Shown here piece after piece: positions 58,364-59,108 of a stretch of DNA of 64,000 nt. Position numbers and translations under genes: made by a program. Positions within the stretch are counted from its first letter, which is position 1; every line of letters starts with the position of its first letter. The notes under the pieces were generated by a model. It saw only the letters and a list, made by a program, of their open reading frames with translations. It had not been told where the DNA came from and searched no databases. The DNA is from Massalongia carnosa (taxonomy: Eukaryota): positions 496,001 through 560,000 of the forward strand of contig OZ287086.1 in the NCBI GenBank assembly GCA_965645245.1, given 5' to 3'.

Positions 58364-58654
58364 CTAAGGCCTAACCACGACATACTCGACCGAGTCCTGC
58401 GCGACCACCGCCTTCAGCTCCTCACGCGCACGCTCCGGGGAAACCCCCTCCATGACCAAGGCTAGCCGGAAGCCATTCTGCGGTCCGTGCCGATCGGTCT
58501 GATAAACCACGAACAGCAGTGATTTGCTCGTTTTTCCATCCCGCACAAGCCCACCTCGCCGGACCGCCAGCTCGATTCCCTTCCCATCCTCAGCGTTGGA
58601 GATCTCGTCCAGCGCACCGGCGCAGGCGATTTCCCTAAAGGAAGCACTCTCCAT
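58364..58654 (-). CDS. Hypothetical 96-aa non-secreted protein overlapping the upstream gene
   Basis: ATG at 58654; Cys-poor and globular-looking (LLFVVYQTDRHGPQNGFRLALV). Same GC-rich coding character as its neighbour, and AT-rich sequence starts only after its stop. Confidence 0.55.
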   Translation of the reverse strand: MESASFREIACAGALDEISNAEDGKGIELAVRRGGLVRDGKTSKSLLFVVYQTDRHGPQNGFRLALVMEGVSPERAREELKAVVAQDSVEYVVVRP

Positions 58655-59108
58655 TCTCGGCGTTGAGGCTCTTGACGGACCCACCGGTGTAGCAGGTCGC
58701 GACGTTGTCGACGACGCACAAATAGCTCTTTCCCGGGCAGTTGTGCGACGACCTGAACCCTTTGCTGTGGGTCGGATCGCACCCTTGGAATTTGGCCTTG
58801 GCCTTTTTGATCTTGGCGCAGTTATTGCACGACACCGCCCCTTTTTTGCCTTTGGGATCCCGGACGTCGAGCGATCGCTTCTTTAGCTTTTTGCACGCGA
58901 TGGAGGTTTGATCCCCGTTCTGGTGGGTGTCGCCGTTGCAGAAATTGGGGTCCTGATTGGCGGGGCACGAACGGGCAGTGTTACCGCGGTTGCTGAGTGC
59001 AAAGCGTGGAGTCTGTCGATGGTTTAGGGGGGGGAGGGAAAACGCAAGGCTTTGAAGACTGAAGAGGGCGACGAGAGAGAGCAGGAAGAACGAGATCCTC
59101 GATAGCAT
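58635..59108 (-). CDS. Secreted cationic Cys-rich preproprotein (157 aa, 10 Cys)
   Basis: Signal peptide MLSRISFFLLSLVALFSLQSLA, propeptide ending in R, Kex2-type KKR site and a Lys-rich, Cys-rich C-terminal part. Confidence 0.85.
   Translation of the reverse strand: MLSRISFFLLSLVALFSLQSLAFSLPPLNHRQTPRFALSNRGNTARSCPANQDPNFCNGDTHQNGDQTSIACKKLKKRSLDVRDPKGKKGAVSCNNCAKIKKAKAKFQGCDPTHSKGFRSSHNCPGKSYLCVVDNVATCYTGGSVKSLNAENGECFL

Follow-up and report, generated by a model that had tools for sequence, protein, structure and literature searches.

Two overlapping genes at a locus of Massalongia carnosa: a conserved small-gene cassette and candidate fungal dicistron

Introduction

How could a ribosome reach a coding sequence that begins before the preceding one has ended, and are two such reading frames one gene or two? 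This question is raised by a locus of Massalongia carnosa that lies in a window of 64,000 nucleotides (contig OZ287086.1 of assembly GCA_965645245.1, positions 496,001 to 560,000 of the forward strand; positions below count from the first letter of the window). On the minus strand of this window, an open reading frame (ORF) for a Cys-rich, secreted-type protein, ORF1, is overlapped at its 3′ end by a second one, ORF2, with a predicted cytosolic product (Table 1). An earlier note on this DNA had proposed an operon-like dicistron in which a toxin of antimicrobial or killer type, processed by Kex2, is encoded by ORF1 and a self-protection partner by ORF2. Nuclear dicistrons giving rise to two separate proteins seldom occur naturally in fungi, and those that have been proven, the polyketide synthase (PKS) and nonribosomal peptide synthetase (NRPS) pairs of Glarea, are lineage-specific. 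The present analysis leaves us with high confidence that ORF1 and ORF2 are two real genes forming a conserved, tight cassette. How ORF2 is expressed and what the pair does are answered more tentatively below.

Results

The overlap of the two coding sequences was reproduced in coordinates and frames as the earlier note had given it. The ORF2 ATG is nested, on the same strand, in the last codons of ORF1 (...GAG AAT GGA GAG TGC TTC CTT TAG), and the ORF2 frame is +1 relative to that of ORF1. The GC-rich coding texture also extends, as proposed, across both ORFs, with a GC content of 0.555-0.625 for the entire block (58300-59099) against 0.415 (58200-58399) and 0.375 (59100-59299) in the flanks. 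Given the homologues of ORF1 and the homologues and confident fold of ORF2, the overlap is beyond chance.

The earlier description of ORF1 as Lys/Cys-rich and secreted is consistent with its sequence, which holds 10 Cys, has an isoelectric point (pI) of 9.6 and carries KR at residues 77-78 and a hydrophobic N-terminus (mean Kyte-Doolittle value 1.69 for the first 22 residues, against 0.03 for the N-terminus of ORF2). Secretion and cleavage by Kex2 are what we infer from these features; many homologues, though not all, have KR, RR or a single R as a basic site ahead of the C-terminal domain. A first sequence search found 11 homologues and a profile search 22 besides ORF1 itself, from lichen fungi, Calocera, Halenospora and Aspergillus section Flavi. 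The region common to them is the C-terminal domain only, of about 65 residues, and the pro-region is poorly conserved. In alignment A3, six Cys and the motif E-x-G-E-C-F, followed by one residue and then the stop, are found in 18/18 sequences, and C8, C24, C38, C45, C53 and E65-G67-E68-C69-F70 of the domain are kept in all of them. The same GECF-x ending occurs in 11 of the 12 sequences of alignment A2, P0009 being the exception. Since this C-terminal ending is kept across the homologues of both alignments, the ORF1 stop is taken as genuine.

No Pfam family matched ORF1 or the 12 family members scanned. The AlphaFold2 model of the putative mature domain was of moderate quality (pLDDT 77.6; five models 48 to 78); with this fold, Foldseek gave no match in the PDB (best E 4.8), and the VIA wide search no chain at Z>=2. 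A sequence profile search of the PDB returned only cytochrome c, at E ~0.01 and in the variable N-terminal part of A3, and the ESM Atlas held no usable match. The chitin-binding module CBM19, after which UniRef names the homologue P0007, was considered and rejected: it resembles the ORF1 family in being a small Cys-containing fungal domain, but its Pfam profile does not match the family (CBM_19 in 0/12 members at E<=1). On this evidence ORF1 is a member of an undescribed fungal family of predicted secreted-type proteins with a C-terminal 6-Cys domain that ends in NGECF-x-stop.

That ORF2 is a gene in its own right rather than noise in the 3′ untranslated region (UTR) of ORF1 is supported by its conservation and model. 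It has 23 homologues at E<=1e-11, mostly full length. In an alignment of 22 of these (the 60-aa fragment P0020 was omitted), no variation is seen in the start Met and in 14 residues, among them D-E-I-S-N and G-P-Q-x-G-x-R, and the ORF2 of the window is intact with all 14. Its profile, searched against 1.84 billion representatives, retrieved 88 clusters at E<=1e-3, of which 42 reached E<=1e-10. The AlphaFold2 model reached a pLDDT of 93.8 and a pTM of 0.84. No Pfam family was found for the ORF2 domain in ORF2 itself, in its alignment or in 15 longer proteins of the family. Comparison of the modelled fold gave no convincing match with Foldseek against the PDB (best E 0.34) or in the VIA wide search (best Z 3.0), the PDB sequence profile search gave none, and in the ESM Atlas a value of 0.86 was obtained to FGE-sulfatase fragments with few features in common. 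As judged from sequence searches and the predicted structure, the ORF2 family too is undescribed and has no recognised fold.

The ORF2 domain also occurs within a 536-aa Schizophyllum protein and in tandem two-module proteins. In P0077, P0080, P0084 and P0092, a related module (...ACYP-x-S...KEG-x-SPE...) comes second, after an N-terminal ORF2 domain; this tandem duplication hints that the single-domain ORF2 proteins may act as dimers. Two further members of the family, P0064 and P0135, were seen on 34 Mb and 20 Mb contigs of the assembly of a liverwort, Calypogeia fissa. P0064 is placed inside a lichen-fungus clade on a long branch. These proteins could reflect a fungus-to-plant transfer or fungal sequence in the assembly.

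The operon-like juxtaposition, which according to the earlier note leaves no space for a promoter, recurs elsewhere. A metagenome scan with the ORF2 profile yielded 14 loci, of which L001-3 are one sequence seen three times and two (L009, L010) were excluded for too little upstream sequence, leaving 10 distinct informative loci. In L004 and L005, an ORF1-like ...NAGNGEC[F/V]L-stop is followed by an ORF2-like ATG at +29 nt, and in L006 ...GFENGECFL-stop is followed by one at +80 nt, the spacer lacking any ATG. ORF1-like sequence was absent from the 329-3000 nt upstream of ORF2 in the other 7/10 loci (L001-3, L007, L008, L011-L014). Further pairs come from annotated gene models in which an ORF1-like and an ORF2-like part are fused, namely P0055 of Teloschistes flavicans, P0050 of Tricladium/Hymenoscyphus varicosporioides and P0075 of Clonostachys rosea; both halves of each match by BLASTP (1e-25 to 3e-7). 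Among 107 ORF2-family proteins, two contain an ORF1-like part, and P0050 is a third that was reached from the ORF1 side. Even if these models are wrong, they prove the adjacency of the two genes in the genomes concerned. The pair thus has the same order and strand at the DNA level in the window and in L004-L006, and in gene models from Lecanoromycetes, Leotiomycetes and Sordariomycetes.

In a maximum-likelihood tree of the ORF2 family with 42 rows (7 labelled paired, 4 alone and 31 unlabelled), at least three label changes are needed, and the Clonostachys row falls inside a 100/98 clade together with unpaired rows. Paired members are present on either side of the deepest split of the tree, which suggests an ancestral linkage with later losses. 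An old linkage lost several times is the simplest reading that fits, repeated independent juxtaposition being implausible.

Many ORF2 homologues start with M-[DE]-x-[AV]-x-x-[KRNS]; such a start could hold an embedded N-G-x-C-x-x-stop in the other frame, which is regarded as a lead only. L001 fits this back-translation pattern, yet it has no ORF1 and no embedded stop at the DNA level. At its positions 2995-3025, the ORF2 homologue starts with MDAASLK and the ORF1-type frame reads Y-G-R-C-F-T-Q without a stop. This alternative-frame reading could be what is left of an earlier NGECF-stop overlap, or it could be a coincidence.

With respect to transcription, no poly(A)-like hexamer was found at 58640-58223, the first being TATATA at 58222, and the GC-rich block holds none. 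Since the ORF1 stop lies inside ORF2 and such a hexamer is lacking, an ORF1 mRNA almost certainly continues across ORF2 and into the AT-rich sequence past 58364. The three spacings measured (-20, +29 and +80 nt) all leave no room for a promoter or terminator. Furthermore, between the two start codons no ATG occurs in any frame over 451 nt; dinucleotide shuffles of this stretch gave 2.7 ATG on average and none in 4.0% of cases, and synonymous-codon shuffles gave 2.1 and none in 5.1%. Upstream of ORF2, L006 has 0 ATG in 187 nt, and L004 and L005 have 1 and 2, respectively, within 233 nt. The ORF1 start context is AACATGC, with A at -3 and C at +4, and that of ORF2 is AGAATGG. A minimal ATG-TAG start-stop element lies at 59172-59167 (minus strand), 64 nt upstream of the ORF1 ATG and downstream of the TATAAG sequence; if it is within the 5′ leader, it could modulate scanning.

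Discussion

The reading that we prefer, held tentatively and at somewhat less than an even chance, is a conserved dicistronic unit in which ORF2 would be translated from the dicistronic mRNA. A single mRNA, driven by one promoter 5′ of ORF1, would take in both ORFs and reach the AT-rich sequence past 58364. Ribosomes that end ORF1 could then restart at the AUG that precedes the stop by 17 nt; alternatively, 40S subunits that pass the ORF1 AUG by leaky scanning would meet no further AUG for 451 nt. By either route, the output of ORF2 would be coupled to that of ORF1. The 20-nt coding overlap itself would have arisen by compaction, here, of a two-gene cassette of Pezizomycotina.

Whether there are two genes at all depends on the frames not being joined by an intron or a ribosomal frameshift into a secreted fusion of about 232 residues. 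We enumerated every GT..AG interval that would join both frames. The only tidy one, of 46 nt (GTCCGT...TTTAG, 58680-58635), brings the ORF2 frame back into register and creates an ORF of 232 aa; in addition, the ORF2 frame is open for 76 codons 5′ of its ATG, and the three public annotations predict fusions. However, such a fusion would remove the invariant last Cys of ORF1, the homologues of ORF2 start at a conserved Met, and the candidate donor and branch site in the window are weak by eye. Moreover, the three models use three splice points (after NAENG in P0050, and after HDGVA and ATCY). The intron was rejected on conservation, as it would delete the invariant C-terminus of ORF1. Because each fused model drops the invariant last Cys and the junctions differ, we read these models as annotation artefacts. 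Fused domains in homologues, which the earlier note had named as grounds for refuting its proposal, are thus formally present in three annotated models, but the models look artefactual. Frameshifting, the route to ORF2 that the same note had set beside reinitiation, does not hold, as ORF2 is shifted by +1 against ORF1 in the window but by +2 in L004, L005 and L006, and a stop and a spacer intervene where the ORFs separate; a programmed frameshift was therefore rejected. Taken together, a single gene is very unlikely. As a side observation, the junction of the fused model P0050 directly follows ...NAENG. With AAT GGT GAG TGC as the assumed codons of N-G-E-C, this place would hold GGTGAGTG, a textbook look-alike of a 5′ splice site, which may be what leads gene finders to this junction. 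A different objection is that ORF2 is here an inert, unexpressed remnant in the 3′ UTR of ORF1. The paired ORF2 copies of L004 and L005, with their in-frame stops, would fit such decay, but the ORF2 of the window is intact with its 14 invariant residues, coding-like GC and a pLDDT of 93.8, so that we consider this the least probable of the alternatives, with hardly any chance of being right.

A far more serious competitor to dicistronic translation is a pair of separate, overlapping units, with a promoter and start site for ORF2 nested in the 3′ coding part of ORF1. In that case, the ORF1 mRNA would merely carry ORF2 as an untranslated 3′ UTR, and the adjacency would reflect shared regulation or chromatin context. 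We regard this as a real possibility at roughly one chance in three; a nested start site is nearly as likely as dicistronic translation. It is favored by the stand-alone genes of the ORF2 family elsewhere (L001-3, L007, L008, L011), by the good context of the ORF1 AUG and by the 80-nt spacer of L006, which is C/T/A-rich and resembles a fungal leader. On the other hand, in all lineages with the pair, the nested promoter would have to occupy just that portion of the ORF1 coding sequence which is best conserved, and the ATG-free stretch would be purposeless. The mean gap of polycistronic pairs in Ganoderma is ~434 bp (PMC11590231), far above the -20 to +80 nt of the present pairs.

Several observations weigh against dicistronic translation and are best considered together. 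In 7/10 loci, the ORF2 relatives stand alone behind ordinary non-coding upstream DNA, and therefore ORF2 can possess a promoter of its own; the known fungal polycistronic loci are also transcribed independently (PMC4503453, PMC11590231). The overlap proper is seen at the DNA level in this window only. The ORF2 copies of L004 and L005 have one in-frame stop each, and the ORF1-like part of L005 has lost two conserved Cys, so these paired copies may be decaying. In cf. Caloplaca, the annotated homologues of ORF1 and ORF2 are on different contigs. The ATG desert is of marginal significance and was tested at one intact locus. Finally, A at -3 of the ORF1 AUG would disfavor leaky scanning, and the dicistrons of green algae prefer weak initiation contexts for ORF1 (PMC11291117).

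Among known systems, the closest would be the translated dicistron of the Glarea type. In Glarea lozoyensis, glpks3-glnrps7 gives one mRNA and two proteins across a 26-bp spacer without a poly(A) signal, and together with two other dicistronic cases it has been described as a "functional operon" (PMC4471562). The IGG1 and IGG6 spacers are derived from Glarea, and reinitiation has been inferred for the 9-nt IGG6 (PMC11677970), which gives this route to ORF2 a direct precedent among Ascomycota. Like the locus studied here, the Glarea case is an ascomycete nuclear locus with two complete same-strand ORFs, a tiny spacer and no room for a poly(A) signal or promoter. In contrast, it concerns large PKS/NRPS enzymes of one pathway and was shown experimentally, whereas the present proteins are small and known from sequence; its ORFs are separated by the 26-bp spacer, whereas here they overlap, with the ORF2 start 17 nt before the ORF1 stop, and the pair is conserved across classes. 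No exact match to IGG6 was present in the 14 loci. Positions 106-114 of L006, AAATCAAAC, share 8/9 nt with IGG6 and overlap the last two bases of the ORF1-like stop; this motif is not significant, as 55/200 shuffles of the contig match equally well, and was rejected.

By mechanism, the leaky-scanning bicistrons of green algae (PMC11291117) might be the closest. The likeness consists of a short ORF1, a short distance between the ORFs, conservation of both ORFs and depletion of ATG before ORF2 (PMC11291117, PMC7896298). The differences are the kingdom, the weak ORF1 contexts there as opposed to A at -3 here, and the overlap of the ORFs in the present case. Fungal read-through polycistronic units have been reported from Agaricomycetes (PMC4503453), Ganoderma (PMC11590231) and Fusarium graminearum (10.1101/2021.11.08.467853). 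They too consist of same-strand neighbors that a single transcript can cover. Yet their members are independently transcribed as well, and their gaps run to hundreds of bp, with a mean of 434 bp in Ganoderma, rather than -20 to +80 nt. In these reports, conservation of the units declines outside Agaricomycetes, with none in Neurospora, whereas the present pair is found in three ascomycete classes. The UAAUG of the hypovirus CHV1 (PMC2699510) is similar in that the ORF1 stop and the ORF2 start overlap or nearly touch and the downstream ORF is dependent. However, that is a viral RNA with dedicated upstream elements, for which no search was made here, and its start lies 1-4 nt from the stop instead of 17 nt. 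No published description of the ORF1-ORF2 pair was found in searches of the fungal dicistron literature and for the locus tags of named homologues. What would be new here is the combination of overlapping coding sequences, small products of undescribed families and conservation in Lecanoromycetes, Leotiomycetes and Sordariomycetes.

The functional part of the earlier proposal saw in ORF1 an antimicrobial or killer-type toxin matured by Kex2 and in ORF2 its cytoplasmic protection partner; the toxin and this immunity protein would be made in fixed proportion from one unit. Being a statement about function, it fits either model of expression. In its favor, ORF1 is small, secreted-like, Cys-rich and basic (pI 9.2 for the mature part) with a KR site, general properties which we take to be like those of fungal antimicrobial proteins. 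A tight, conserved pairing of a secreted and a cytosolic protein is the expected look of a protection module, and lone ORF2 copies would parallel orphan immunity genes. Antifungal proteins of the AFP/PAF type and killer toxins resemble ORF1 in its predicted general make-up: a signal peptide, a pro-region with a dibasic site and, in the mature part, a basic domain of ~70-79 aa holding 6-7 Cys; no sequence or fold similarity to them was detected, and the Cys spacing is the ORF1 family's own. Against the proposal, no toxin, antimicrobial or immunity family was matched by either protein in the Pfam, PDB profile and fold searches (though, with an ORF1 model of moderate quality, an absent match carries limited weight for ORF1), the predicted compartments of the two products differ, and ORF2 relatives often occur without ORF1. 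In addition, the ORF2 domain is found in unrelated architectures. Because it occurs in tandem two-module proteins and in the 536-aa Schizophyllum protein, a more general cytosolic role of ORF2 is suggested. A complex prediction for the ORF1 C-terminal domain with ORF2 scored 0.02, which is no answer and weighs neither way. Beyond general composition and the linkage itself, the pairing of toxin and immunity protein finds no support, and we consider it improbable. Equally doubtful in our view is an ancient obligate dicistron, in which reinitiation by ribosomes bound to the endoplasmic reticulum would occur at the overlapping AUG and the cytosolic partner, of novel fold and made in fixed proportion at the surface of the reticulum, would protect the producer or control export of the secreted protein. 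If this holds, two undescribed families would together form a counterpart, in a eukaryote, of the toxin-immunity operon.

Irrespective of these functional readings, the conserved linkage says that ORF1 and ORF2 should work together, and the search for their function can start from there. Two uncharacterised fungal families are defined, one secreted-type and Cys-rich, the other predicted to be cytosolic and without a recognised fold. If the preferred dicistronic reading holds, a cassette of ~750 nt distributed over three ascomycete classes would be a compact model for the access of ribosomes to a second ORF, and it would supply very short natural linkers for multigene expression. The locus is also a warning for annotation, as pipelines fuse both genes, as in the three public models, or likely drop one.

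Feature coordinates and genomic surroundings

Table 1. Features of the ORF1-ORF2 locus, in positions of the window
Feature	Position	Strand	Remarks
ORF1	59108..58635	minus	157 aa, stop TAG at 58637-58635
ORF2	58654..58364	minus	96 aa, pI 5.4, 1 Cys, predicted cytosolic alpha/beta protein
Overlap, 20 nt	58635..58654	minus	ORF2 codons 1-7 (MESASFR) share bases with ORF1 codons NGECFL-stop
Putative signal peptide, residues 1-22, MLSRISFFLLSLVALFSLQSLA	59043..59108	minus	from sequence and hydropathy
Variable pro-region, residues 23-78, small CxxxxxxxC...C motif	58875..59042	minus	ends KKLKKR, candidate Kex2 site
Putative mature ORF1 domain, residues 79-157 (79 aa, 7 Cys, pI 9.2)	58638..58874	minus	includes the C-terminal 6-Cys domain
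ATG-free stretch between both start codons	58655..59105	minus	0 ATG/451 nt, any frame
AT-rich region 3′ of ORF2, likely shared 3′ UTR and terminator	58200..58363	minus	GC drop to 0.415; putative function
Candidate ORF1 promoter and 5′ leader	59109..59300	minus	TATAAG at 59286-59281; read from sequence, putative

No second ORF1-ORF2 copy was found within the window. The contigs of the sequencing runs X1, X2, X4 and X5 continue across intergenic DNA and carry no information on transcripts. In the sequencing runs X1 and X2, the region 58417-59220 is represented by two contig versions, whose summed depth is ~2x that of the flanks; over 58899-59098, the version identical to the window has a depth of 496 and a version with 10 differences a depth of 434. 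This suggests a second ORF1-ORF2 unit, ~95% identical, elsewhere in the same genome.

Further upstream, the contig depth in X1 and X2 rises from ~500 to 13,000-220,000 over 59623-60627, with many loose ends at 59937. This segment is a very high-copy repeat, ~500 nt upstream of ORF1. Remains of a copia-type retroelement adjoin it, with RVT_2 at 61628-62566 (minus strand) and, judged by eye, integrase-like and RNase H-like ORFs at 60916-63731. On the other side of the cassette, an open frame of 1234 codons at 46499-50203 (plus strand) consists of near-identical 42-aa TPR_10/TPR_12 repeats (E 1e-258) and probably represents the repeat arm of an NLR-like fungal protein. A short open frame at 55139-55573 (minus strand) matches APH, the phosphotransferase enzyme family, at E 7e-9 and reads as an exon or fragment of a predicted kinase-like gene.

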